Shown one piece after another: positions 1 to 12,663 of a stretch of DNA of 60,363 nucleotides. The stretch covers positions 1-60,363 of the forward strand of contig JBCNUW010000011.1 in the NCBI GenBank assembly GCA_039630575.1. The letters run 5' to 3'. A program made the translations under genes and the position numbers. The number at the start of each line of letters is the position of its first letter. Positions within the stretch are counted from its first letter, which is position 1. Source of the DNA: Candidatus Hydrothermales bacterium (GTDB lineage: Bacteria > Hydrothermota > Hydrothermia > Hydrothermales > JAJRUZ01). The notes beneath the pieces were generated by a model that was not told where the DNA came from, ran no database searches, and saw only the letters and a program-made list of their open reading frames with translations.

Positions 1-786
1 AACGAAGAAACTCCTATTTTTACATTAGGAACCTGGGATATAAGAAATAAAAAGAAGATGATTGAAACAATTAGATACGCGTTGGAAATCGGATTAAATC
101 ACATAGATACTGCTGAAATGTACGGTATTGCTGAAGAGGTTATAGGAGAAGCAATAAAGGGGATCGATAGAAAAAAAATTTTTATAACAACTAAGGTTTT
201 GCCTCATAATGCTAACTTCAATGGAACAATTGCTGCATGCGAAAAAAGTCTTAAAAAACTTAAATCAGATTATATTGACCTTTATTTACTCCATTGGTAT
301 GAACCTTACATTGATCTCTCTGAAACTTTTTCTGCCTTTGCAAAATTAATTGAAATGGGGAAAATAAGATACGCAGGTGTCAGCAACTTTGAGATACCTC
401 AGATTAATAAAGTAATTGAAATATTCAAACCATTTAAAATAGTTAACAATCAAGTTGAGTATAATCTTTTTAATTTTAAATATGTTGAAGAAAAACTTTT
501 ACCCTTTTGTGAGAAAAATGATATAACTCTTTCTGGCTATTCACCTTTATGGCAAGGAAAAATACCAAAAGAAACAAAGGGTTGGAAAATAATTGAAAAT
601 GTTGCAAAAAAATACAACGCAAAACCACTTCAAATCGTTTTGAGTTTCCTTTCAAGAAAAAGGAAAATATTTTTAATATTCAAAACAGAAAATATTGAAC
701 ATTTAAAAGAAAACATAACTTCAATAGAATTAAAACTTGAAGAGGAAGATATAGAAGAAATAGAAAAAGCCTTTTCTAACCTCTAA
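1..786 (+). CDS. Aldo/keto reductase (5' truncated by window edge)
   Basis: The frame is open from base 1 (NEETPIFTLGTWD...). AKR motifs: LGTW, IDTAEMYG, DYIDLYLLHW, GVSNF, NQVEYN, YSPL. Confidence 0.93.
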   Translation, partial: NEETPIFTLGTWDIRNKKKMIETIRYALEIGLNHIDTAEMYGIAEEVIGEAIKGIDRKKIFITTKVLPHNANFNGTIAACEKSLKKLKSDYIDLYLLHWYEPYIDLSETFSAFAKLIEMGKIRYAGVSNFEIPQINKVIEIFKPFKIVNNQVEYNLFNFKYVEEKLLPFCEKNDITLSGYSPLWQGKIPKETKGWKIIENVAKKYNAKPLQIVLSFLSRKRKIFLIFKTENIEHLKENITSIELKLEEEDIEEIEKAFSNL

Positions 787-834
787 AATTTTTTTAAAAA
801 TAAAAAAAAACTCAATAATATGAAATTAGGAATT

Positions 835-1083
835 TCAACGACTACCAAAAATTGAAGGCTCAGAACGGTGACAACTCATACAAGAAGGAGCCTCTTTTAG
901 GGGAGATTCACCCTCAACTGAATGACACCTTAGACACGGGACATAAGTTCCCATATTTTCTATTTTTTCGTCATGAAATCTATACCACCAATTAGGATGG
1001 TAATTAACCATTTTTTTTGGATTTTTCTTAGCACAAAAAGAGATTGTAAAAAACAAAACCAAAAAGTATTTTAAAAATTTCAT
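835..1083 (-). CDS. Small diheme c-type cytochrome, probable lipoprotein
   Basis: Two CxxCH motifs (CLRCH, CMSCH). Start placed at ATG 1083 (MKFLKYFLVLFFTISFC-AKK), giving a hydrophobic signal ending in Cys. Confidence 0.8.
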   Translation of the reverse strand: MKFLKYFLVLFFTISFCAKKNPKKMVNYHPNWWYRFHDEKIENMGTYVPCLRCHSVEGESPLKEAPSCMSCHRSEPSIFGSR

Positions 1084-1091
1084 CTTTCCAA

Positions 1092-1946
1092 TCAATGACA
1101 GGTTAAACAAACGTTATCTTTTTCTTCGTGACATACTATACACCTTTCGGGATTTGAGATTGCTTCAGTTTTATGGATACCACCATCTTTTTTTACCCAA
1201 TCAATTGAGTTATGATCTATTGGATAAATTTTTTCCTTCTTATGGCACCCAACACAATCATTGAAATTAATATGACAGGACACACAGTTACTCTCCTTTG
1301 AGTAATAAGAAAAAGAGTGGATAAATTTATAATTTTCTGGATGATTTTTAAATTTAATATTTTCCTTTGCATGACATGTGTTACAAGCTGGTATTTCAAC
1401 TTTGCCAATAAAACTTTCAAAATTATTATCATGACAAAATGCACAATTTTTCTCCATTAATCTTGCCTCACGAGAATGTAAATTTGTGTATCCCTTTGGA
1501 TGGTAAATATAAAGTTTTTCCTCTCTATCTGTGTGACAGGTTTCACATGTAGATTTAATCTTTTTATCTTTATGACACTCAATACAAAATTCCATTTTAG
1601 GGTAGGAAGCAAGTCCCATAGAGAGAAAAAATTCTTCTTCCTTTATTTTTTTATGACATAAAAGACAGTTTATACTACTATGTTTTTTATGCGAAAATTT
1701 AGAAATATATAGTGTTATTCTCCTTATTTTTTTTGGCTCTCTTATATGACAGTTAGAACAACTTTCATCTACATTATGACAACTTGAACATTCCTTGTGA
1801 CCTGGTAAAAGATCATCACTCTGTAGTTCAGATTGACTTGCTTTTTCGTGACAAGTTATACAATCTATATATCTCTCCAGATGCTTTTTATGGGAGAACT
1901 CAAAGTTTTTCTGGTTTAAAAGAAAAATTAAAATTAGACCTTTCAT
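1092..1946 (-). CDS. Dodecaheme c-type cytochrome (c7/c3-like modules)
   Basis: 12 CxxCH motifs counted; two FSHKKH motifs typical of c7/c3-type domains. Confidence 0.92.
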   Translation of the reverse strand: MKGLILIFLLNQKNFEFSHKKHLERYIDCITCHEKASQSELQSDDLLPGHKECSSCHNVDESCSNCHIREPKKIRRITLYISKFSHKKHSSINCLLCHKKIKEEEFFLSMGLASYPKMEFCIECHKDKKIKSTCETCHTDREEKLYIYHPKGYTNLHSREARLMEKNCAFCHDNNFESFIGKVEIPACNTCHAKENIKFKNHPENYKFIHSFSYYSKESNCVSCHINFNDCVGCHKKEKIYPIDHNSIDWVKKDGGIHKTEAISNPERCIVCHEEKDNVCLTCH

Positions 1947-3037
1947 GAGTTATTTTTGTAATTTAATTCAACTCCAAAAAATCCCCTTATATCTCTCTCA
2001 TAAAAAGGATTACTAAAAAATCTTAACTCTGAGATAAATTTTATAAGTCTTACTTTATAGGAAAAACCAAATATTAAAGAGTTTAAGTAGTATTCAAAAT
2101 TCGAATCATCATAAGTTTTGAAAGAAAAATTGAAGAGGAAATTTTTATAGGGATATAGAACATCTAGGTGATAAATAAATAGAGTTCTAACTTCGTCACC
2201 TCCATAACCAAATCTAAAAGAGAAAAATCCCTTTCTTAAATTTAGTAGGATAAAATCACTACTTTTTTCTAAATTTTTTGAAAAAGACAATCTATAATAG
2301 AATGTGGGAGTAAATATTTTAAAATTCTTAAAATTAAAAGAAAAAATAAATTTGTGAAAGACTTTTGATTCCAAAATTTCATTTAAATTTTTAAGGTAAC
2401 TTAAAAGTGAATTTTCGTAGAAATACCTGAGATTCACTAAAATTAACCTACTTTTAAAACTTAAACTAAAATCCATATTTTTAATATTTTTAAAATTTAT
2501 GTCATAGCATAAAGAGAAATGAGGATTAAAGAGTTTATTAAATCTAAACAAAAGAAAAGTCTCTTTGTTATCTAAAAAGAATGATAAAGAAAAGTTTTTA
2601 TATGAAATTTTATAAAAAAGTCCATAAATAATCTGATTCTCTCTAAAGAACAAATTTTTAGCTTTAAAAGGTAAAAAGGCTCTCTTACCTAAATAAAAGG
2701 ATGGCTCCATGTTTAAAAAACTAAAATTAATAGAAATTCCATCTAAAAAGGAACCAACACCTTCATATAAAAACTGTCTTCCCAATTTGATACAAAACTT
2801 TTTATACTTGTAACCTAAATGAGAACAAAAAATCTTATACTCAGAATTCTCCCTTTGTTGAAAGTAATTTGCTGAAAAATTAAAGAAAAGGCCCTTTAAA
2901 TACACATTTTCTAAACTAAAATCTAGATAGCTATAAAGGGGATAATACCTTACCCCTTCATCCAATGCATATGGATAAAAATAAGAATTTAAATTTATTT
3001 TAAAATACGAGAAAAAAATTAAAATAAATAAATTCAT
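1943..3037 (-). CDS. Putative outer-membrane beta-barrel (porin of a porin-cytochrome complex)
   Basis: Aromatic-rich alternating strands, LGRQF...G..LDG motif, beta-signal-like GVELNY near the C-terminus, ATGA overlap with the dodecaheme gene. Confidence 0.7.
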   Translation of the reverse strand: MNLFILIFFSYFKINLNSYFYPYALDEGVRYYPLYSYLDFSLENVYLKGLFFNFSANYFQQRENSEYKIFCSHLGYKYKKFCIKLGRQFLYEGVGSFLDGISINFSFLNMEPSFYLGKRAFLPFKAKNLFFRENQIIYGLFYKISYKNFSLSFFLDNKETFLLFRFNKLFNPHFSLCYDINFKNIKNMDFSLSFKSRLILVNLRYFYENSLLSYLKNLNEILESKVFHKFIFSFNFKNFKIFTPTFYYRLSFSKNLEKSSDFILLNLRKGFFSFRFGYGGDEVRTLFIYHLDVLYPYKNFLFNFSFKTYDDSNFEYYLNSLIFGFSYKVRLIKFISELRFFSNPFYERDIRGFFGVELNYKNNS

Positions 3038-3112
3038 TTTCTAATAAAATCTGTCGCATTCAATCCATCAAAAATGTACTTCATATTTTGAAACATTTAT
3101 TAGACTAGCTCT

Positions 3113-3451
3113 TTAAAATTCCTTAACACCTAAAATTTTCCCTTTTTCAGAATATATTTTCATCATTACATCTCTCACAATCTTGGAAGCTTCCAAAATT
3201 TCAGGATATTTCAGTTTGTAGTAAACCTCATTACCCTTCCTTAATTTCTCAAGTATTCCCTTTTCATAAAGAGTCTTCACATGCTGAGAGACATTTGGTT
3301 GTGAAAAATAAAGCTCTAAAGATAGTTGTGAAATAGTTTTGGCCTCTTTACTTAAACTTTCTAATATCATCAGCCTCTTTGGTTGTGCTATAGTCTTACA
3401 AAACTCTGCCTGTAAAAAATAAATTTCAGGTATCTTTTTCCTATTCTTCAA
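3113..3451 (-). CDS. ArsR/SmtB family transcriptional regulator
   Basis: AEFCKTIAQPKRLMIL, SQPNVSQH, RKGNEVYY winged-HTH pattern; TTG start. Confidence 0.9.
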   Translation of the reverse strand: MKNRKKIPEIYFLQAEFCKTIAQPKRLMILESLSKEAKTISQLSLELYFSQPNVSQHVKTLYEKGILEKLRKGNEVYYKLKYPEILEASKIVRDVMMKIYSEKGKILGVKEF

Positions 3452-3473
3452 ATCTTAAAATTAAATTAAGAAA

Positions 3474-3488
3474 AGGGACTTGAACCCT
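3474..3488 (-). terminator. T-arm-like hairpin followed by a U-rich tract (possible weak terminator or processing site)
   Basis: Minus strand reads AGGG-TTCAAGT-CCCT then TTTCTT, just after the octaheme stop codon. Confidence 0.4.
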
Positions 3489-3502
3489 ATTAAACTTTAA
3501 AT

Positions 3503-4546
3503 TTAAAACTGTGGTGGGAGTTTATCAAGAGGTTCACAGAAAAGTATCTGTTTCAAATCTGCTTCATCCTTTAAATGCACCCATTTACCTTCCTCATCCT
3601 TTGTTACATAGGAAAGTTTTAAAGCATCTCTCCAATTACCAGGAACTGGAATAGTCCCTTTGCTATACTTCAACTTAAGTGAATCAGCTAACCATCTAAC
3701 TAAAGTCATTGTTCCAGATGAATTATACTCCTGAACAAAGGAATTTCTATGGCATTCATCACATATTGTTGAAGGATCTGGTTTATAAACTGTATGTCCA
3801 TAAAAAGGTGCAACCACCACAAATGCCTTTCCTTGATAAGTTATGGTCATAATATTCCCAGCTGAAACTTTTCCGTTCCTCTTAACAAGAAACTTCCAAT
3901 TGTGAAACCTTCCATAAGCTACTTTTTGTCCAAGATTTACCTCTGATTCAAAGTGGCAATTATAACAGGTAACTACACTTTTAACATGACAGGCTGAACA
4001 ATCAAGTTCATCATCATTTCTATCAGTAAGACTTTTGAGATGAGTATTATGGGCAGTGGTTGAAGGTAGTGTTGTATGACAGTCATAACAATTTACATGT
4101 ATTGCACCCTCAAACATTGAGTTATAAGATTTCCCGTCTCCGTGAACATCTTCCTCATCATGGCATTTAGCACAAACAAATCCCTGGCTTTTGTGAACAT
4201 CAGTATATCCTAAGGCAATTTCAGCCTTTTGTCTTCCATGGCAGTTAAGACAGGAATTATCAGTAGGAACATCACCTTCCTTTGAATGACATGTACCACA
4301 ATTATTAGGATCAACATGACAATTTTTGCAGGCAAGGTTCTCGTAAGGAATCCCAGTTAAATTTTCGAAACCTCCATTCTGTGCTGAATAAAAATAAGCC
4401 ATCCCAGCAGTTGTATAATGAAGAGAAGTAGAAAGCAACTCCGCTGGAGAAGGAGGAGATGGAAGAGTAGGACAAACCTCTTTCTTCTTACAACCTACTG
4501 ACACTATTAAAAATATAATACCAAAACTTATTATCCTCCCTAACAC
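3503..4546 (-). CDS. Octaheme c-type cytochrome lipoprotein
   Basis: 8 CxxCH motifs, lipobox IVSVG-C followed by KKK and a Pro-rich tether, GTG start with AGGAG SD. Confidence 0.9.
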   Translation of the reverse strand: MLGRIISFGIIFLIVSVGCKKKEVCPTLPSPPSPAELLSTSLHYTTAGMAYFYSAQNGGFENLTGIPYENLACKNCHVDPNNCGTCHSKEGDVPTDNSCLNCHGRQKAEIALGYTDVHKSQGFVCAKCHDEEDVHGDGKSYNSMFEGAIHVNCYDCHTTLPSTTAHNTHLKSLTDRNDDELDCSACHVKSVVTCYNCHFESEVNLGQKVAYGRFHNWKFLVKRNGKVSAGNIMTITYQGKAFVVVAPFYGHTVYKPDPSTICDECHRNSFVQEYNSSGTMTLVRWLADSLKLKYSKGTIPVPGNWRDALKLSYVTKDEEGKWVHLKDEADLKQILFCEPLDKLPPQF

Positions 4547-4619
4547 CTTTTACGCTCCTTTTTTATTTTGGACTTGAACCAATATTAATAAATTTTTTAA
4601 AAAATTATTTTCTTAATTT

Positions 4620-4648
4620 ATTATAAACAAAAAAAATTTTCCTGTCAA
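4620..4648 (-). promoter_or_regulatory. Consensus sigma70 promoter of the cytochrome cluster
   Basis: TTGACA (4648-4643), 17-nt spacer, TATAAT (4625-4620) on the minus strand. Confidence 0.85.
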
Positions 4649-4861
4649 GTGGATGTTTGATTTGATAACATTTTTAAATTTTGAAATTCACCGTAATACC
4701 CCTTTAATATAAGCAAAAAAGAAGTTCTCTTATTACTCTGCCTTTAATAGTCCATGAAAATATGAAAAATTAGAACTACTTAAACTTCCTATAAAAGTTT
4801 CACAAATTCTTTTTTACTACAATGCCTAAACTATTTTAATTTTTTTATTTTTCCAAAAATT

Positions 4862-5032
4862 TTATACACCTATATAATTACCGAGAATAGAAAAAATGCC
4901 AATTATCATAAGTATCCAAGGCCAGTCTCTTTTCAAGCTCCAGAATGACAAAAAACCAAGCTCAAAAAACCATATAAAAAGCCCTAAAATTATTAAAAAC
5001 ATTCCTGTATTCCTTTTATCTACCTCCTTCAA
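4862..5032 (-). CDS. Small two-TM protein, LiaF-TM/DUF5668-like (not in ORF track)
   Basis: Manual translation: (M)KEVDKRNTGMFLIILGLFIWFFELGFLSFWSLKRDWPWILMIIGIFSILGNYIGV*. Shows the G-x-x-LI-x-x-G and WP-x-IL-x-x-x-G pattern. Start is TTG 5032 or ATG 5002. Confidence 0.65.
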   Translation of the reverse strand: MKEVDKRNTGMFLIILGLFIWFFELGFLSFWSLKRDWPWILMIIGIFSILGNYIGV

Positions 5033-5039
5033 TTATGTT

Positions 5040-5325
5040 TTAGTCAATCAATATCTTAACATTAGAACCATCTTGTGTTTCAAAGTTTCAATTTCTCCTT
5101 GTGTTCTTTTATGGCAATTAATTTACCCCTTTTATCTTTGGTTATAAATATCAACAAATCTATAAAAACCATCGGTATGGTTACATTTATCCTTTTAACC
5201 TTTCAACATCTCAAATTTTACTTTTAAAAACTTTTTTTAAATTTTTATTCTGAATAGCAAAAACTTCTTAAAAAGCTCCTTAGCTTCTTTTAGCCCTTAA
5301 TTTCCTATCCGCTTTGACAAATTTT
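5040..5325 (-). pseudogene. Decayed SHOCT-like (YvlB/DUF2089-operon type) gene remnant
   Basis: Fragments broken by stops and frameshifts: DRKLRAK, KEAKELFKK, KKFLKVKF, KRINVTIP, FETQDGSNVKILID*. Confidence 0.4.
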
Positions 5326-5341
5326 TTTTAGAAAATAATTT

Positions 5342-6292
5342 CTAAATTTTTTCTTTAACTATGAAAGGTTTTCTGTTTTGTGATTCAAAGTAATTCCTTA
5401 TTAAAATTTCCATCAAAAGTCCTGTGAGTATAAGTTGAATAGAAGGAATTAAAAAAATAATGGCAATTATAGTTTTAAAATTTTTAAAAATTTCTAACTT
5501 TAAAAAAAAGAAATCGTAAAAAGCCCAAAATAAAAAAATAATACCTAAAAAAATAAAAATTAACCCAAAAATACCAAAAAAATGCATTGGCTTTAAAAAA
5601 TAATCTCCCATAAATTTAACAGTCAATAGATCCAACAAAACTTTAAAAGTCCTTTTAAGTCCATACTTACTTTTTCCCTTGAACCTTTTATTATGTTTAA
5701 CCTCCACTTCTTTTAACTTTGCTCCCTGATAAACACAGAGAGCTGGTAAAAAACGATGCATTTCCCCATAAAGCCTTAAACTCTTTATAACTTCACTTTT
5801 ATACGCTCTTAAAGTGCATCCGTAATCTTTTAATTTTATACCAGTAATAAAGGATATCAAAAAATTCGCAATTCTTGAAGGCAAAACCTTAGTCAAAAAT
5901 GGATCTTTCCTCTTTTTTCTTAAACCACTTACAACATCATAACCCTTTTCAAGTTCCTTCAATAAAACCTCAATATCTTCGGGATCATTCTGTAAATCTG
6001 CATCTAATGTTATAACAATATCTCCAGTCGCTTCCTCAAAACCAGCATATAATGCCAGTGTTTGTCCAAAATTTCTTGCAAACCTTATTCCCTTTACTTT
6101 ACTATCTTTCAACTTTAACTTTTTTATAATTTCCCAAGAACTATCTTTACTTCCATCATCTACAAATATTATCTCATAATTTTCTATAGATTTTTTTTCC
6201 AAAAAATCTTTCAATCTAAAATAAAGGGTTTCAAGATTTTCTTCCTCATTAAATACAGGAATGACAATTGATATAAAACTTTTAAAACCCAT
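5342..6292 (-). CDS. GT2 polyprenol-phosphate glycosyltransferase (ArnC/GtrB-like)
   Basis: SIVIPVFNEEENL, VDDGSKD, RNFGQ, LDADLQNDP, two C-terminal TM helices. Confidence 0.93.
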   Translation of the reverse strand: MGFKSFISIVIPVFNEEENLETLYFRLKDFLEKKSIENYEIIFVDDGSKDSSWEIIKKLKLKDSKVKGIRFARNFGQTLALYAGFEEATGDIVITLDADLQNDPEDIEVLLKELEKGYDVVSGLRKKRKDPFLTKVLPSRIANFLISFITGIKLKDYGCTLRAYKSEVIKSLRLYGEMHRFLPALCVYQGAKLKEVEVKHNKRFKGKSKYGLKRTFKVLLDLLTVKFMGDYFLKPMHFFGIFGLIFIFLGIIFLFWAFYDFFFLKLEIFKNFKTIIAIIFLIPSIQLILTGLLMEILIRNYFESQNRKPFIVKEKI

Positions 6293-7244
6293 TGCAACAT
6301 TTACAGTTTTTCTCGTGCCACTTTAAAAAACTTTCTATACCTTCTTCAAGAGAAGTTAGAGGTTTATAATTTAAAATCTTTTTTGCTTTCTCTATATTAG
6401 CATAGGTCTTTTTAACATCACCTATAGGAAGAGGCTCAAGTAAAACTTTTGCCTTTTTTCCTAATAACTTTTCAATTATACCTATAACTTTTAAAATTGA
6501 TACAGGCTTAGAACTCCCCAAATTAATTATATCAAAATCAAAATCTTTTAATTGAAATGAATTTATTATTCCATTAACAACATCATCAACATAAGTGTAA
6601 TCTCTTTTTGTCCTTCCCTCTCCAAAAACTTCTATTTCTTCACCTCTTAAAATTTTCTTTGTAAAACTATGAATAGCCATATCGGGTCTCTGAGAAGGAC
6701 CATAAACTGTGAAAAGTCTAAGTATCAAAACTTTTATTCCATAGAGTCTATTATAGGTTTCACAAAGAATTTCTGCAGCTCTCTTTGAAAAACCATAAGG
6801 AGAAACCGGAACAATATCCTTATCACTCTCAGAAAACTTACCCCTTTTATTTCCATAAACAGAAGAGGAGGAAGCAAAAATTAACCTTATTTTGCTATTC
6901 CTTATATTTTCAAGCAAAGTTAAAGTTCCTTTAACGTTAATTTCAAGATACTCAAAGGGAGTCACAATTGAAGCCCTCACTCCAGGTCTTGCTGCAAGAT
7001 GCACTATAACTTCCGGATCTTCTTCTAAAATTATCTTTTTCATATTCTCTCTACCAAGAATGTTAGCTTCATAAAATTTAAAATTTTTAAAATTAAATAA
7101 ACTCTCAAGATTTCTCTTTTTTAAAGAAATATCATAGTAGGGATCAAAATTATCAACACCTACTACCTCATAACCAAGTTCAAGAGTTTTTAAAGATAAA
7201 TTACTACCAATAAAACCGGCAACTCCTGTAATTAAAATTTTCAA
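6282..7244 (-). CDS. NAD-dependent epimerase, UDP-glucuronate 4-epimerase-like
   Basis: ITGVAGFIG, HLAARPGVRAS, ASSSSVYG, YGFSK, FTVYGP.QRPDMA. Confidence 0.88.
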   Translation of the reverse strand: MKILITGVAGFIGSNLSLKTLELGYEVVGVDNFDPYYDISLKKRNLESLFNFKNFKFYEANILGRENMKKIILEEDPEVIVHLAARPGVRASIVTPFEYLEINVKGTLTLLENIRNSKIRLIFASSSSVYGNKRGKFSESDKDIVPVSPYGFSKRAAEILCETYNRLYGIKVLILRLFTVYGPSQRPDMAIHSFTKKILRGEEIEVFGEGRTKRDYTYVDDVVNGIINSFQLKDFDFDIINLGSSKPVSILKVIGIIEKLLGKKAKVLLEPLPIGDVKKTYANIEKAKKILNYKPLTSLEEGIESFLKWHEKNCKCCNGF

Positions 7245-7296
7245 ACTTAAGAATTATACTTTATTTTTAACCTTAATTTAAAATATATTAACTTTT

Positions 7297-8286
7297 ATGA
7301 ACATTTTTAGACCTATTAAAAATATTTTCTTTTTTAGATGGGAAGGACTTGGTGATCTTATTCTTGATACTCCACTTTTTAGAATAATTAAAGAAAACAT
7401 AAAGAATGCAAGGTTAACTGTTATAACCTCACCTAAAAATAGAGAAATCCTTTTTTATAATCCCTTTGTAGACTTCATTTTACCAAAGAAAATTCTCTTA
7501 GAAGTATTTTTTAAAAAATGTGATCTTTTTATTGATATGATGGGTAACGCAAGGACCCTTTTTTTATTTTTAATTTTAAAACCTCCCCTTAGATTGGGAT
7601 TTCAAAAAAAATTGCCTTTTTTAAATCTAAAAGTTCCTTTTGAGGCAACTTTGGATTACACTATAAAACATAGACTTAGACTTTTAAAAATACTAAATAT
7701 AAAAAACATTCCTGAAAACCCTCTCCCTGAAACTTACTTAAGCGAAAAGGAAGAGAAAAAATTCAAAGAAAAATTTAAAAACATAATTAAATATGATTAT
7801 GTAACAATTTTTCCATATGCTAAGGGAAAAGTAAGAAACTTCAAAGAAAACCTTTACTCATATTTAAACGATAAACTAATAGAAAAAAGTAAAAAGGTAA
7901 TTTTTATCTTTACAAAAGAAGGCTTAAAAAAATTTGAAAAAATAAAAAAACTCTGTAGAAAAGAGCCTCAATATATACTTTCACCAAACTTAAGGGAGCT
8001 TATCTTTCTTTTAAAATATTCCAAACTATACATAGGACCTGATACAGGACCAAAACATATAGCCGTTTCACAAAACACTAAAACTTTAACATTTTTTACC
8101 CATACAAATCCCATAAACTGGACTCCCAGCAATTATGAAACTCATAAATACATTACACCCGAAATAGATTGCCATCCATGTGAAACAAAAAATTTAAACT
8201 TTTGTAAAAGAAGAGATTTTAAGTGCCTTTCACTCTTTGATCATGAAAAAATTTTTGAAATTTCATTAGAATTATTAAAAAAATAA
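7297..8286 (+). CDS. GT9 LPS heptosyltransferase family protein
   Basis: GLGDLIL, GPDTGPKHIA, CHPC motifs. Confidence 0.88.
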   Translation: MNIFRPIKNIFFFRWEGLGDLILDTPLFRIIKENIKNARLTVITSPKNREILFYNPFVDFILPKKILLEVFFKKCDLFIDMMGNARTLFLFLILKPPLRLGFQKKLPFLNLKVPFEATLDYTIKHRLRLLKILNIKNIPENPLPETYLSEKEEKKFKEKFKNIIKYDYVTIFPYAKGKVRNFKENLYSYLNDKLIEKSKKVIFIFTKEGLKKFEKIKKLCRKEPQYILSPNLRELIFLLKYSKLYIGPDTGPKHIAVSQNTKTLTFFTHTNPINWTPSNYETHKYITPEIDCHPCETKNLNFCKRRDFKCLSLFDHEKIFEISLELLKK

Positions 8287-9715
8287 AGATTAAAAAGTAA
8301 AGTATATCAATTAAATTTCCATACCTTGTATAGAAGGTTTTGTAATCAAAAATTTTTACATCTGAGACCAAAACGCCTCTTTTAAAGAGAGGAATCTCCT
8401 TTAAAACTTTTCCCTTCTCATCAACAATACAACTTATTCCACTCCTTGCTGATCTTACAATATACCTTCTGGTCTCAACTGCCCTAAAAATCGCAAGATC
8501 TCTATGTACCCTTGGACCAAGTGATTTTCCAAACCAGCCGTCACTTGTTATGTTTATAAGTAAATTTGCTCCCTTTTTAACAGCCTCTCTTGAAATCTCT
8601 GTAAAAATTGATTCAAAACAAATTGGAACAAAAACAAAAAAATCCTCGATCTTAAAAATCCTCAATTCTTTTCCTCTGAAAAAGTTACCCTGACCAAAAT
8701 CAAGTTTTCTAAGTATTGGAAAAATCTCATCAAAAGGTAAAGCTTCACCAAAAGGTGTAAGATGAGTTTTATGATAAAAGTCAACAAGATTTCCTTCCTT
8801 GTCAACTAAAAAGGCTGTATTAAATGACCTATATTTTCCCTTTACAAGTTGGGCATCGGCATTTCCAAAAATTAAATAAGAACCCGTTTTTTTTACGAAC
8901 TTGCTTACTATTTGAATAACATTAGTATCAAACCTTGCAAAAGATGGTATTGAAGATTCAGGAAATACAGATAGTAAAGTGCCCCTTACAGCAAGAGAAT
9001 CATAGATTTTTTCAGATATTTTAAACTCTTCGTCTCTGTTATAACTCAAAGGTATATTGGGCTGATAAACTGAAACAGAAACTACTTTAATAGGTCTCAA
9101 ATCTTTTTTTAGAAGAAAATACCCAAAAATCAAAGATGAAAGAATAAGAAAAAAAGAAAGGAAAATATATTTTTTCTTTGCTTTATAAATTAAAAAATTA
9201 ATTAAAACAATAAAAAAGGTAATAAAAAATGGGCCAAAAAATTCAGTTAATTGAATTAAAGGTAAATTGTTCTTTTGAGTTAAAAAAAGAACAATCCAAG
9301 GAAACCCTATATCTGTCTTTGACCTTATTATTTCAAGAATAGTATAAATCAACGGAATCAAAACATAAGAGAATTTTTCTTTAATAAATTTTTTGAAAAA
9401 AAAAGTAAATAAACCAAAATAAATTCCATGACCAATAAAAATTAAAAATACACCAACTGTTATCCAGAAATAAGCTTCTTTTTCTATCTCTCTTAAATTA
9501 AAGATCCAGTTTAACTGAAAGAAAGAAAAAATTGTTCCAAAGATAAAACCTGTTAAAAAAGCTTTTTTTATATTTTCAGTTAATATAAAAATAGGGACAA
9601 AAGCAATGAAGGCAAAGGGGAAAAAATAAAAGGGAGGAAAGGAAATAAGTAATAAAAAAAGAGAGAGAAAAAAAAGAAAAAAATTTTTAAACTTTAATTT
9701 TTTCAATAATTTCAA
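8219..9715 (-). CDS. lnt: Apolipoprotein N-acyltransferase
   Basis: Multi-TM N-terminus, GFPW, QPNI, catalytic E/K/C in FPES, YHKTHL.PFGE, ICFES; RAVETRR. Start codon uncertain. Confidence 0.93.
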   Translation of the reverse strand: MKLLKKLKFKNFFLFFLSLFLLLISFPPFYFFPFAFIAFVPIFILTENIKKAFLTGFIFGTIFSFFQLNWIFNLREIEKEAYFWITVGVFLIFIGHGIYFGLFTFFFKKFIKEKFSYVLIPLIYTILEIIRSKTDIGFPWIVLFLTQKNNLPLIQLTEFFGPFFITFFIVLINFLIYKAKKKYIFLSFFLILSSLIFGYFLLKKDLRPIKVVSVSVYQPNIPLSYNRDEEFKISEKIYDSLAVRGTLLSVFPESSIPSFARFDTNVIQIVSKFVKKTGSYLIFGNADAQLVKGKYRSFNTAFLVDKEGNLVDFYHKTHLTPFGEALPFDEIFPILRKLDFGQGNFFRGKELRIFKIEDFFVFVPICFESIFTEISREAVKKGANLLINITSDGWFGKSLGPRVHRDLAIFRAVETRRYIVRSARSGISCIVDEKGKVLKEIPLFKRGVLVSDVKIFDYKTFYTRYGNLIDILYFLIFIFLIILMKFQKFFHDQRVKGT

Positions 9716-10670
9716 GAATCTTTATTCCATCATCAATTTTAAACCTTGGATTTTCAACTTTGTTTATTGAATTAACAAAATTCTCAAGTAATAAATCAAA
9801 GGAAAGCCTATAGAAACTTTTTTCTTCAGTAATCCTAGGTGTTATATCTATCAGATGACCAAAGTGTTTCTGAACAATTCTGAAAGGTGTAAGATAGGCA
9901 TTCCCCTTTTCACAATAAATCTCAATCTGGAATCTGTCACTATCTATAAAGGGATCCCACAAAACTTCTATAAAAACACTTAAATTATTCTTAAGATCCA
10001 AGTAAAGGGTACCCTCCCATTCAATTCCTGTGCTTTCATTTTTTCTAAAAAATTTAAGGAAATTTGTTGGTTCTGTCTTAAAATAAAAATAATATATTTC
10101 AAAAATATGAATAAGCACAGAATGATAAATTGAGCCAGCATAATTTGGATCCTGTAACCAGTAAGGTCCTGAGAATTCAATTCTTTTTCTTCTTCTTATA
10201 AACTTTGTATGTATTATATCTCCAAGAACTTTCTTCTCAAAGACAATCTCTTTAATTTTTAATATATCTGGCCTAAAAGAATAATTCATAGCAGGCATAT
10301 ATATCCTGTTTGTATCACTAATTTTTTTCTTTAACTCCAAAGCCTCCTCAAGTTTCAATGAAACTGGAAGTTCACAGAGAGTATGTTTTCCATAAGTGAT
10401 GGACGCAAGTGACATAGGATAGTGAAGATGGTTAGGTGTAGTTATTATAACTGCATCTACATTCTTATCTGACAGTAAATCTTCAAAATCAGTATAAATT
10501 ACCTCTGCACCATGAATTTCTTTCGCCTTATATAATTTTGCTTCATCTAAATCACATAAAGCATAGAGATTTATCCTCTCTTTTAATCTCTTTATTGAAG
10601 GTATATAACCTGTCTGTGCTATATGACCAACACCAATTATCCCAACGTTTATCCTTTTACCCTCTTCCAC
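9687..10670 (-). CDS. Gfo/Idh/MocA family oxidoreductase
   Basis: VGIIGVG.IA, DAVIITTPNHLH, GKHTLCELP (EKP motif altered to ELP). Confidence 0.88.
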   Translation of the reverse strand: MEEGKRINVGIIGVGHIAQTGYIPSIKRLKERINLYALCDLDEAKLYKAKEIHGAEVIYTDFEDLLSDKNVDAVIITTPNHLHYPMSLASITYGKHTLCELPVSLKLEEALELKKKISDTNRIYMPAMNYSFRPDILKIKEIVFEKKVLGDIIHTKFIRRRKRIEFSGPYWLQDPNYAGSIYHSVLIHIFEIYYFYFKTEPTNFLKFFRKNESTGIEWEGTLYLDLKNNLSVFIEVLWDPFIDSDRFQIEIYCEKGNAYLTPFRIVQKHFGHLIDITPRITEEKSFYRLSFDLLLENFVNSINKVENPRFKIDDGIKILEIIEKIKV

Positions 10671-12663
10671 CCCTTATCTCCTCCTCGATCATTTTAATTT
10701 TATCAGAAATAACTCTGCACTCGTTGATTCCACTCTCTATCTTTTTAATATAGGAATTGATCTCTTTAAGATCCTCAATAAGTTCCTTCATTCTCTGTGT
10801 GCCCGATTCAGCCTCCTGTAACTCCTCACCAATCAACCTTATAACCTCTGAAAGTTTTGTTACTGAACTTTCAAAAAAAAGCGGCATATTCTCAATCTTG
10901 GGTAAAAGCTCAACAGTATTAGTAAGTACTTCTCTTTCTCTTTTTTCAGATTCTAAAAATCTTTCAAAACTTTTTTCAAGTAAACTTTCATACTCACCTA
11001 TATAACTCCTTGTATTTTCAAGTATTTCACTAAATGAAACAAATTCCTGAGTTAGTCTACTTATAACATTTTCAACAGATTGCGCAAGACTACCTATCTC
11101 TCCGGCAATGATTGAAAAACCTCTTGCTTCTTCTCCTAATCTAGTTGCTTCAATGGACGCATTAAGTGAAAGAAGTCTTGTTTTACTTGCATAATCCTTC
11201 ATAAATTCAACAAAACCGTGAATCTTTTCTATAAGGGAAATTGAAGATAGAATATTTTCTTTTAATTTCCTGAACTCTCCTTTTAACCTATCCATACTTT
11301 CCTCTACGTTTTTCAGGGAAAAAAGAATAGTTTGAATCTGAGGTCTTTTTCCTCTGAAAAAAGAAGCAAAAAAAGAAATTTCATCTTTTGCTTTCTCAAA
11401 TTCCTGTGCTATAAGCTCAAGAATATCAAAATTTTTCCTTATTTTTTCAGAAATATCACTGAAGGATCCTTCAGTTTGAGAAAGAGAAAAATTAAATTTT
11501 GTAACATGAGAAGTGAACTTGTTAAGAATCTCACACACTGTTTTTGTTTTACTTACAATATCTTCGGAAAGATGGGGAAGTTCCTGAATATAAAGATAAA
11601 TCAAAATTATCCTTGCTACCAAGTTAGAAACCATAATGAATCTTTCTCTATCATCTTCTGAAAAATTGTCTTCAATCTTTGATTCAAAAGAAAGTAAACC
11701 ACTCAATTTTTTATCCTTGTAAAAAGAAATCAAAAATACAGATAAAGTATTAGGGGAAAAAAACTCATACTTTTTTTCAATTTTCTTTATGTAGACTTTT
11801 TCGTTTACACCAACCATATCAAGAATACCTGTTGAGAAAGTCTTCTCCAAATACTCCTTCTCATCTGCATAGGCACATTTAATTTTTCCATCTTCTTTTA
11901 CAAAAATTTTCATGTGATCAAAATCAATATATTCCTTCAAGAGATTAAACATATTACTGAAAAATTTTTCCATTGAAAAATCTTGTGTAACAAGTGCCTC
12001 TGTGCGATATAGAATTGAGAGTTTATCTAAATTAAGATAATCTCTGAGAACCAATATACTCATAAATATAAGCGGCAAAAGAAATATTATCCCCCAAAAA
12101 TTTTTATTTTTTATAAGATCATAAAACAAAAAAATAAAAACCATGTAAAAAAATATAAGTCCCACCTCTTTTGCTAAAGTATATAAATGAATTTTTAAAT
12201 TTACTTTTTTTCTAATAAAAATAGGTAAATAGAAAAAGATAGGATATAAAAGTGGAGAAACAACTAAAAAAATTAAAATATTTACCCTTTCTGTAGGAAG
12301 TTCTATATACCTTATTAAACTTAAAAAAAGGGCACCTGAAAGGTAAGAAAGAGAGGTGTGAACGATATTTAAAAATCTATCTTTAAGAATAAAAAGACCA
12401 AATAGAAAAACTCCAAAAAAGGAAGCTAATGATCCTGAAATAGGGGAGATATAAGAAGAAAAAGCAGCAGCCACAGGACAAAATGTAAAGAAATAAAAAT
12501 GCCTCAATGGAAATCTAAAAAACCTCAATAAAAATACTGCAAAAAAAGTAATTAAGAAAATAGGTAAAGAAAAAACACTCTCTCCCTTAATACTTAAAAG
12601 ATAAGAGTGTAAAATTAAAAGAAAAATTGTAAGTCCAAAATAAAGGTAAATATAAAAAACCAT
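10657..12663 (-). CDS. Multi-TM, GAF-containing methyl-accepting chemotaxis-like protein
   Basis: About 6-7 hydrophobic segments, GAF-like SVFLISF...GLLSFESK...FSEDD, MCP tip TRLLSLNASIEATRLGEEARGFSIIAGEIGSLA. Confidence 0.78.
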   Translation of the reverse strand: MVFYIYLYFGLTIFLLILHSYLLSIKGESVFSLPIFLITFFAVFLLRFFRFPLRHFYFFTFCPVAAAFSSYISPISGSLASFFGVFLFGLFILKDRFLNIVHTSLSYLSGALFLSLIRYIELPTERVNILIFLVVSPLLYPIFFYLPIFIRKKVNLKIHLYTLAKEVGLIFFYMVFIFLFYDLIKNKNFWGIIFLLPLIFMSILVLRDYLNLDKLSILYRTEALVTQDFSMEKFFSNMFNLLKEYIDFDHMKIFVKEDGKIKCAYADEKEYLEKTFSTGILDMVGVNEKVYIKKIEKKYEFFSPNTLSVFLISFYKDKKLSGLLSFESKIEDNFSEDDRERFIMVSNLVARIILIYLYIQELPHLSEDIVSKTKTVCEILNKFTSHVTKFNFSLSQTEGSFSDISEKIRKNFDILELIAQEFEKAKDEISFFASFFRGKRPQIQTILFSLKNVEESMDRLKGEFRKLKENILSSISLIEKIHGFVEFMKDYASKTRLLSLNASIEATRLGEEARGFSIIAGEIGSLAQSVENVISRLTQEFVSFSEILENTRSYIGEYESLLEKSFERFLESEKREREVLTNTVELLPKIENMPLFFESSVTKLSEVIRLIGEELQEAESGTQRMKELIEDLKEINSYIKKIESGINECRVISDKIKMIEEEIRGGRG

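Follow-up and report, generated by a model that had tools for sequence, protein, structure and literature searches.

Can a bacterium of the WOR-3 phylum move respiratory electrons through its outer membrane? The question is raised by five genes at positions 835 to 4,648 of contig JBCNUW010000011.1 from Candidatus Hydrothermales bacterium (assembly GCA_039630575.1), the whole 60,363 nucleotides of which are called the window here; it is contig C3 of the source genome G000 (1.89 Mb, 30% GC, 94.7% complete). An earlier note, made from the sequence alone, proposed a trans-outer-membrane conduit with the architecture of both Shewanella MtrCAB and the Geobacter systems. Our analysis favors, at a probability of roughly 75%, a porin-cytochrome (Pcc) conduit that exports respiratory electrons to the cell surface. 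Profile homology places it with the Geobacter OmbB/Pcc type, while the relation to Shewanella was not borne out for the porin, since none of 11 WOR-3 barrels matched the MtrB family. The note's assignment to a WOR-3-like organism is supported, since NCBI lists a protein of G048, a genome of the same genus, under the name ‘candidate division WOR-3 bacterium’. The thermophily that it thought probable accords with the literature on the class. The features of the locus are as follows.

4620..4648, minus strand: predicted sigma-70-type promoter, TTGACA-17-TATAAT, score 12/12
3503..4546, minus strand: octaheme lipoprotein cytochrome c, 347 amino acids (aa), 8 CxxCH, lipobox VGC
3113..3451, minus strand: ArsR/SmtB-family regulator, Pfam HTH_5, NCBIfam NF033788 above cut-off
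1943..3037, minus strand: predicted ~22-strand, plug-less outer-membrane beta-barrel, 364 aa, remote homolog of Geobacteraceae OmbB-type Pcc porins
1092..1946, minus strand: dodecaheme cytochrome c, 284 aa, 12 CxxCH, ATGA overlap with the barrel stop
835..1083, minus strand: diheme lipoprotein, 82 aa, 2 CxxCH (longer open reading frame 835-1110)
4568..4582, minus strand: tRNA T-arm-like mini-hairpin seen in the sequence of the octaheme leader, followed by an AGGAG Shine-Dalgarno sequence at 4559-4555
3474..3488, minus strand: tRNA T-arm-like hairpin 22 nt before the ArsR start, without a Shine-Dalgarno sequence

All five genes lie on the minus strand downstream of one perfect promoter (4648-4620), co-oriented as the earlier note had described them, and its reading of the regulator and of the ATGA coupling was equally accurate. 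Recounting gave the same 22 heme motifs (8+12+2) in 835-4546, whereas 1000 base shuffles of that stretch averaged 0.13 and never exceeded 2.

The outer-membrane barrel

No significant family was assigned by Pfam or NCBIfam to the 11 barrels or to P0004-6, and because both miss it, the barrel is overlooked by routine annotation. The window barrel has only one other close database homolog. Among 5.8 billion sequences, a profile made of the 11 WOR-3 barrels alone retrieved P0006 (E-value = 7.9e-13) and two Calditrichaceae-like proteins, one of them so named. Extended by these proteins, the profile gave 380 matches, and the named new ones among the best 120 belong to Geobacteraceae, Desulfuromonadaceae, Deltaproteobacteria or Nitrospirae. 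This step is partly circular, and therefore a profile was built from 117 new Geobacter-type barrels alone. Searched against 4595 open reading frames (ORFs), it recovered the barrels of G027 (E-value = 3e-31), G041 (3e-11), G048 and G049 (7e-4 each), with shuffled and reversed controls at 1.4 or worse, and HHalign scored the Geobacter-type and WOR-3 barrel profiles at 98.6% over 342 columns. In 79 metagenome loci the Geobacter-type barrels are followed by an 8-9-heme cytochrome of ~230 aa (56 ORFs; most loci without it are incomplete) and then by a large multiheme protein; an ombB-omaB-omcB layout has been described for Geobacter (PMC4245776). By profile comparison, the window barrel is a remote homolog of the Geobacteraceae porins encoded in such ombB-omaB-omcB-like operons. 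In an unrooted tree of the barrels, families f1 and f12 fall together; its branches are long (0.71 for the window barrel), and no donor was inferred from it.

The earlier note had staked its reading on the folding of 1943..3037 as a beta-barrel, and structure prediction does give one. The model, built from a 134-row alignment (pLDDT 86.3), has ~22 strands, occupies residues 12-361 of 364 and is plug-less. Its best structural matches are 22-strand TonB-receptor barrels minus their plug (Z 19.8, root-mean-square deviation [rmsd] 4.0, 329 aligned), compared with Z 16.0, rmsd 4.8 and 316 aligned for MtrB. A geometric formula puts the backbone diameter at 38-41 Å for 22 strands against 45-48 Å for 26. 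This size is no objection to a conduit, because 18-22 strands are predicted for the Pcc porins in the literature and the Geobacter Pcc complex carries electrons across liposomes (PMC4245776). No solved OmbB-type porin was found by sequence searches of the PDB, nor was any among the fold-search matches listed. Identity as a TonB-dependent receptor was rejected, as the extent of the barrel leaves no N-terminal plug and there is no Pfam match. Membership of MtrCAB/MtoAB/PioAB was rejected as well, with 364 aa and ~22 strands against the ~650-700 aa and 26-28 strands of the MtrB family.

Cytochromes and regulator

To judge from its short hydrophobic leader, the dodecaheme cytochrome is probably periplasmic. 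It begins with c7-like hemes and continues with three His-His-CxxCH-CxxCH repeats resembling OmaB-like proteins, to which it aligns at 98.4% in HHalign; its profile gives a median of 42 bits for the OmaB-like set against 17-23 bits for three other multiheme sets. Most relatives have 11 hemes, and the 12-heme forms (G000, G048 and a fragment in G049) carry one extra motif together with one extra His. Ten non-motif His and Met118 are invariant in 8/8 full-length homologs, and the distal ligands of the window protein add up to 11 His plus Met118 for 12 hemes; ligand number therefore equals heme number, as expected of a wire. Identity with the MtrA/DmsE decahemes was rejected (12 hemes; TIGR03508 at 17.8 bits, cut-off 192.2). 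A DNA-pattern scan of the whole of G000 with the dodecaheme returned one weak, unrelated locus only. Within the conduit clusters of G087 (L020:11145-11657) and G088 (L019:4560-5075) there is a 7-heme paralog of its N-terminal two-thirds.

The diheme protein corresponds to one repeat unit of the dodecaheme and has two invariant distal His. Its description as a diheme lipoprotein stood as to the two CxxCH motifs and a Cys invariant in 6/6; its start is most likely ATG 1083, as in homologs, and not 1110, and the lipobox here is non-canonical (ISFC), being canonical (AGC/WGC) in 3/6.

The octaheme is predicted from its sequence to be a surface terminal module. Its family comprises at least 238 uncharacterised clusters at E-values up to 1e-30, often arranged as 2-4 tandem copies, and 39 of the top 150 members match a loosely defined lipobox. 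Across 149-164 family domains, six non-motif His are conserved for eight hemes, leaving two hemes without a conserved His ligand, and Arg105, Tyr53 and Asp116 are conserved too. The best solved match is PDB 1SP3, octaheme tetrathionate reductase (E-value = 6e-8; best domain 5e-4, in heme-binding segments only). No NCBIfam tetrathionate reductase matched at E-values up to 0.1, the match to ExtM is weak (41 bits against a cut-off of 800), and an Atlas search returned generic c7/c3 clusters of Bacteroidota and Thermodesulfobacteriota. The ArsR gene travels with the octaheme gene, both lying away from the barrel in G041, and the octaheme-ArsR pair is a separate module. Octaheme homologs that are not lipoproteins were also seen at L134 (G024:C148:2-5014) and L132 (G026:C78), next to ccm genes or to an operon that resembles formate dehydrogenase and includes a 360-aa porin-like gene.

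Distribution among WOR-3 genomes

The barrel and the 11/12-heme cytochrome occur in the same 10 of 272 WOR-3 genomes and are adjacent in all 10, barrel first, in the synteny comparison that the earlier note had suggested; a wider profile added one weak match. The genes around this pair vary. The diheme gene lies downstream of the 11/12-heme gene in 6/10, is absent from three (G089-G091) and could not be judged in G027. Upstream, G048 and G049 have octaheme-ArsR-hexaheme, the hexaheme of G048 with its own promoter-like site; G089 and G090 have the octaheme alone directly before the barrel, their complete set being octaheme-barrel-11-heme; G087 and G088 have a different octaheme, joined in G088 by a hexaheme; and G041 has a divergent hexaheme at the conduit. 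The octaheme itself is found in 11/272 genomes; three of these have no detected barrel, and there it also lacks a lipobox. The core is thus the barrel plus the 11/12-heme cytochrome with exchangeable surface lipoproteins, and a fixed five-gene unit was rejected. Swapping of outer cytochromes is typical for Pcc and Ext clusters (PMC4245776; PMC6148476).

The cluster flanks in G000 differ from those in G048 and G049, and the closest relative, G047, whose flanks share 82-86% nucleotide identity, holds ~320 bp at the site and no conduit; the cassette is therefore readily gained, moved or lost. Compared with G048, nonsynonymous differences (pN) are below synonymous ones (pS) for all five genes, whose frames are intact. 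No second Pcc-type barrel was found in G000.

Maturation and electron supply

The earlier note asked for cytochrome c maturation genes of the ccm or the ccsA/resB kind, and the former are present (ccmB, ccmC, ccmE, ccmF). ResB was not found in G000, which points to System I. It also looked for an inner-membrane link elsewhere in the genome, and a plausible candidate donor, judged from its domains, lies at G000:C4:43498-52508 (L048), with 16-, 18-, 9-, 9- and 4-heme proteins (56 CxxCH), a NapC/NirT N-terminus and three cytochrome b domains of the FdnI type. In G088, Rieske, cytochrome b, 9-, 18- (NapC-like) and 7-heme genes are joined to the conduit in one cluster, and in G047, which lacks the conduit, the C4-type cluster has lost most of its sequence and is frameshifted; this is one instance of co-loss, on which assembly may have had an influence. 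A longer C4-type cluster with two Rieske/cytochrome b pairs, absent from G000, was seen in G048 (L138, C3:479-16854).

G000 has two UbiA-family genes. No NrfD/Psr anchor, heme-copper oxidase or Rieske/cytochrome b was found in it, and its sole molybdopterin-family protein is encoded in a cytoplasmic-looking NADH-linked operon. Genes for Nuo, Sdh/Frd-like, CydAB-like and Mvh/Hdr proteins were recognized by motif and reading, not by hidden Markov model. At G000:C31:2286-4819 there is a membrane-protein pair, one with a single CxxCH and, by eye, a CydA-like N-terminus; with no Pfam or NCBIfam match at 1e-4, it may be a bd-type oxidase of divergent sequence. Another candidate for an envelope conduit, of presumably PCC3-like layout, was noticed at G000:C1:151077-162706 (L047). 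It encodes an NHL-repeat protein, 7-, 8- and 9-heme paired-CxxCH cytochromes with weak DmsE/MtrA similarity, a 525-aa aromatic-rich protein with a barrel-like reading and no family match, and a 4-heme protein, with an 11-heme protein of 644 aa nearby.

Leaders and flanks

Perfect TTGACA/TATAAT pairs with 16-18 nt spacers number 18 across G000. T-arm-like hairpins also precede the octaheme, hexaheme and barrel starts of G048 (L016 leaders), while the barrel of G000 is without one; an Rfam search of window positions 1-12000 gave no matches, and a search for RNA sequencing runs listed none that covers the locus. Many secreted proteins of G000 and its relatives have short leaders made of Met and ~6-10 hydrophobic residues with little or no basic n-region, and a loose pattern of this kind, applied without a control, matches 180 of 1436 genes above 150 aa. 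Between the promoter and a glycosyltransferase gene there are ~690 bp (window 4650-5340) with fragments resembling a decayed gene, for which no DNA match was found at the corresponding site of G047. The aldo-keto reductase gene at the flank is convergent with the cluster and unrelated to it.

Comparison with known conduits

The closest likeness is to OmbB-OmaB-OmcB of Geobacter, where a homologous porin of ~400 aa is followed by a periplasmic multiheme with a similar His-His-CxxCH-CxxCH repeat, and where a lipoprotein cytochrome, an adjacent regulator and variable outer cytochromes complete the picture (PMC4245776). Unlike in Geobacter, the window barrel is shorter (364 aa against ~404), sharing 13-19% identity with the Geobacter-type rows, the periplasmic cytochrome carries 11-12 hemes and begins with a c7-like part, and the place of an OmcB-like protein is taken by the 82-aa diheme and an unrelated octaheme upstream. 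Pcc systems carry 5-14 periplasmic and 1-15 outer hemes (PMC4245776). The heme set that the earlier note called unusual, 12+2+8, is correct in its counts, and less unusual than claimed because it falls within these ranges; nor is it fixed among relatives. Similarity of the porin to OmbB/OmbC was reached indirectly through profile links, transitively in the case of the window barrel; the model has ~22 strands, within 18-22; the adjacent periplasmic cytochrome has 12 CxxCH and is ATGA-coupled; and the lipoprotein cytochromes are the octaheme, with its VGC, and the diheme, with its invariant Cys.

ExtABCD/ExtEFG of Geobacter sulfurreducens also combine a dodecaheme periplasmic cytochrome, a barrel and lipoprotein cytochromes, two of the latter in ExtABCD, with outer lipoproteins swapped between genomes as in WOR-3; gene order and heme counts differ, and orthology to ExtA-D is set there at above 40% identity (PMC6148476). 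MtrCAB of Shewanella (PDB 6R2Q) has the same overall design, MtrB having 26 strands (PMC12133095) compared with ~22 here. The octaheme resembles 1SP3 and ExtM in its eight hemes and in the similar spacing of the later heme motifs, and differs from them in being a lipoprotein, the matches being weak, partial and far below family cut-offs. The design principle is already known, and the unusual parts are the mini diheme lipoprotein and the uncharacterised octaheme.

Proposed mechanism and alternatives

From the genes, their motifs, synteny and homologies, the maturation genes and the predicted barrel, we infer export, binding, orientation, direction and acceptor as follows. The cytochrome b/NapC-like cluster on C4 would oxidise the membrane electron pool, and the c7-like N-terminal hemes of the dodecaheme would receive the electrons in the periplasm. 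Its OmaB-like C-terminal repeats may thread the barrel, with the diheme lipoprotein extending or capping the chain, and the octaheme lipoprotein would hand the electrons to an outside acceptor such as sulfur or polysulfide, a metal oxide or a partner cell. ArsR likely represses the cluster transcript.

Several observations weigh against this model. The Geobacter-only profile left the window's own barrel and those of G087-G091 unmatched at E-values up to 1, so the link to Geobacter passes through the 45%-identical barrel of G048, and it is gene layout and the names of the source organisms, not a direct comparison, that make the Geobacter-type barrels themselves probably OmbB-type. Geobacter-type barrels supply 118 of the 134 rows behind the structural model, and folding from the single sequence failed (pLDDT 33). 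The likeness between the dodecaheme and OmaB appears to rest mostly on motif spacing: once the heme motifs are masked, the OmaB median drops to -0.45 bits, and that of the other sets, taken over reported matches only, to about -4. The barrel and dodecaheme leaders are unusually short. The hexaheme of the sister species G048 and G049 is absent from the whole of G000 together with its promoter, and the barrel gene has no visible ribosome signal; for these reasons the cluster in G000 may be a reduced copy. As to supply, the donor cytochrome b occurs in 12/272 genomes, only six of them with the conduit; the donor cluster stands without it in G042-44, G046 and G050, with a remnant in G047, and was not found in the conduit-bearing G089-G091 and G027. 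The menaquinone pathway was not found in G000 (MqnA/D and MenD absent; genome 94.7% complete).

Three other explanations were weighed. A barrel serving as a secretion or assembly pore for cytochromes, or as a solute porin beside cytochromes that store electrons in the periplasm, or else a decaying copy, would fit the Foldseek top matches of the model, which are pilus ushers (TMq up to 0.65), the loss of the hexaheme, the long barrel branch (0.71) and the loss of the cluster in G047. The structural matches, however, reflect size only (6-12% identity), the homologous Geobacter system conducts electrons across liposomes (PMC4245776), the five intact frames with pN below pS speak against decay, and G089 and G090 carry only the three-gene octaheme-barrel-11-heme form; we consider such roles improbable. 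Much the same can be said of a conduit run inward, in which cytochrome bd or fumarate reductase would be fed with electrons taken from reduced minerals, sulfide or partner cells. Heme wires are reversible, CydAB- and Sdh/Frd-like genes are present, and relatives link Rieske/cytochrome b modules to the conduit, but searches of G000 yielded neither a heme-copper oxidase nor NrfD nor a Rieske/cytochrome b and, up to 2014, Fe(II) oxidisers were not known to have any pcc cluster (PMC4245776), so that this direction of flow is hardly to be expected.

Possible, if on the unlikely side, is a conduit that ends in a catalytic surface reductase, with the octaheme as the enzyme and with sulfur, polysulfide or, by analogy to ExtHIJKL, an oxyanion (selenite or tellurite) as its substrate. 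Its two hemes without a conserved His ligand, the conserved Arg105, Tyr53 and Asp116, the matches to 1SP3 and ExtM and the adjoining ArsR gene agree with such a role, and S0 (elemental sulfur) and Se oxyanions have been proposed as Pcc substrates (PMC4245776). Yet the 1SP3 match is confined to heme-binding segments with no catalytic residue demonstrated, the missing ligands could come from a partner protein, other lineages place a different octaheme or a hexaheme in the same slot, and the tandem repeats of the family suit a wire.

Sulfur respiration and significance

The electron-exporting Pcc conduit, which we prefer, may bear on a puzzle in WOR-3 physiology. The only isolate, sy37, respires S0 and not ferric citrate or ferrihydrite, without psr or dsr, and its authors suggest a SudA-like protein for sulfur respiration (PMC12285271). 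Since sy37 uses S0 and not Fe(III), and S0 has been proposed for Pcc, sulfur is at least as plausible an acceptor as iron.

The earlier note held that the lineage was not known for this function, and our literature searches likewise turned up no publication that describes a WOR-3 porin-cytochrome conduit, with PMC11475568, PMC7399161 and the supplements of PMC12542636 and PMC10681998 as sources that could list matches. Of two dedicated WOR-3 papers, the main text of PMC12542636 has no mention of multiheme, porin or extracellular electron, and the accessible text of PMC12285271 with its one supplement has none of heme. No such WOR-3 conduit was found in the accessible text of PMC11237511, PMC10681998 and PMC4411801, and in that of PMC7382037 WOR-3 is credited with conductive pili only.

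The finding adds WOR-3, described as a phylum of fermenters or oxygen respirers, to the groups with a Geobacter-type porin-cytochrome conduit, and the compact core with exchangeable surface cytochromes offers a small model for acceptor change in Pcc conduits. If sy37 carries the cluster, it would be a candidate for the unexplained sulfur respiration of that isolate. A bolder idea, which we regard as doubtful, is that WOR-3 Hydrothermia respire extracellular S0 or polysulfide through the Pcc conduit, with the octaheme, founding its family, as a new surface sulfur reductase. If true, it would explain WOR-3 sulfur respiration without psr or dsr, and it would be the first demonstration of the S0 role of Pcc proposed in 2014.

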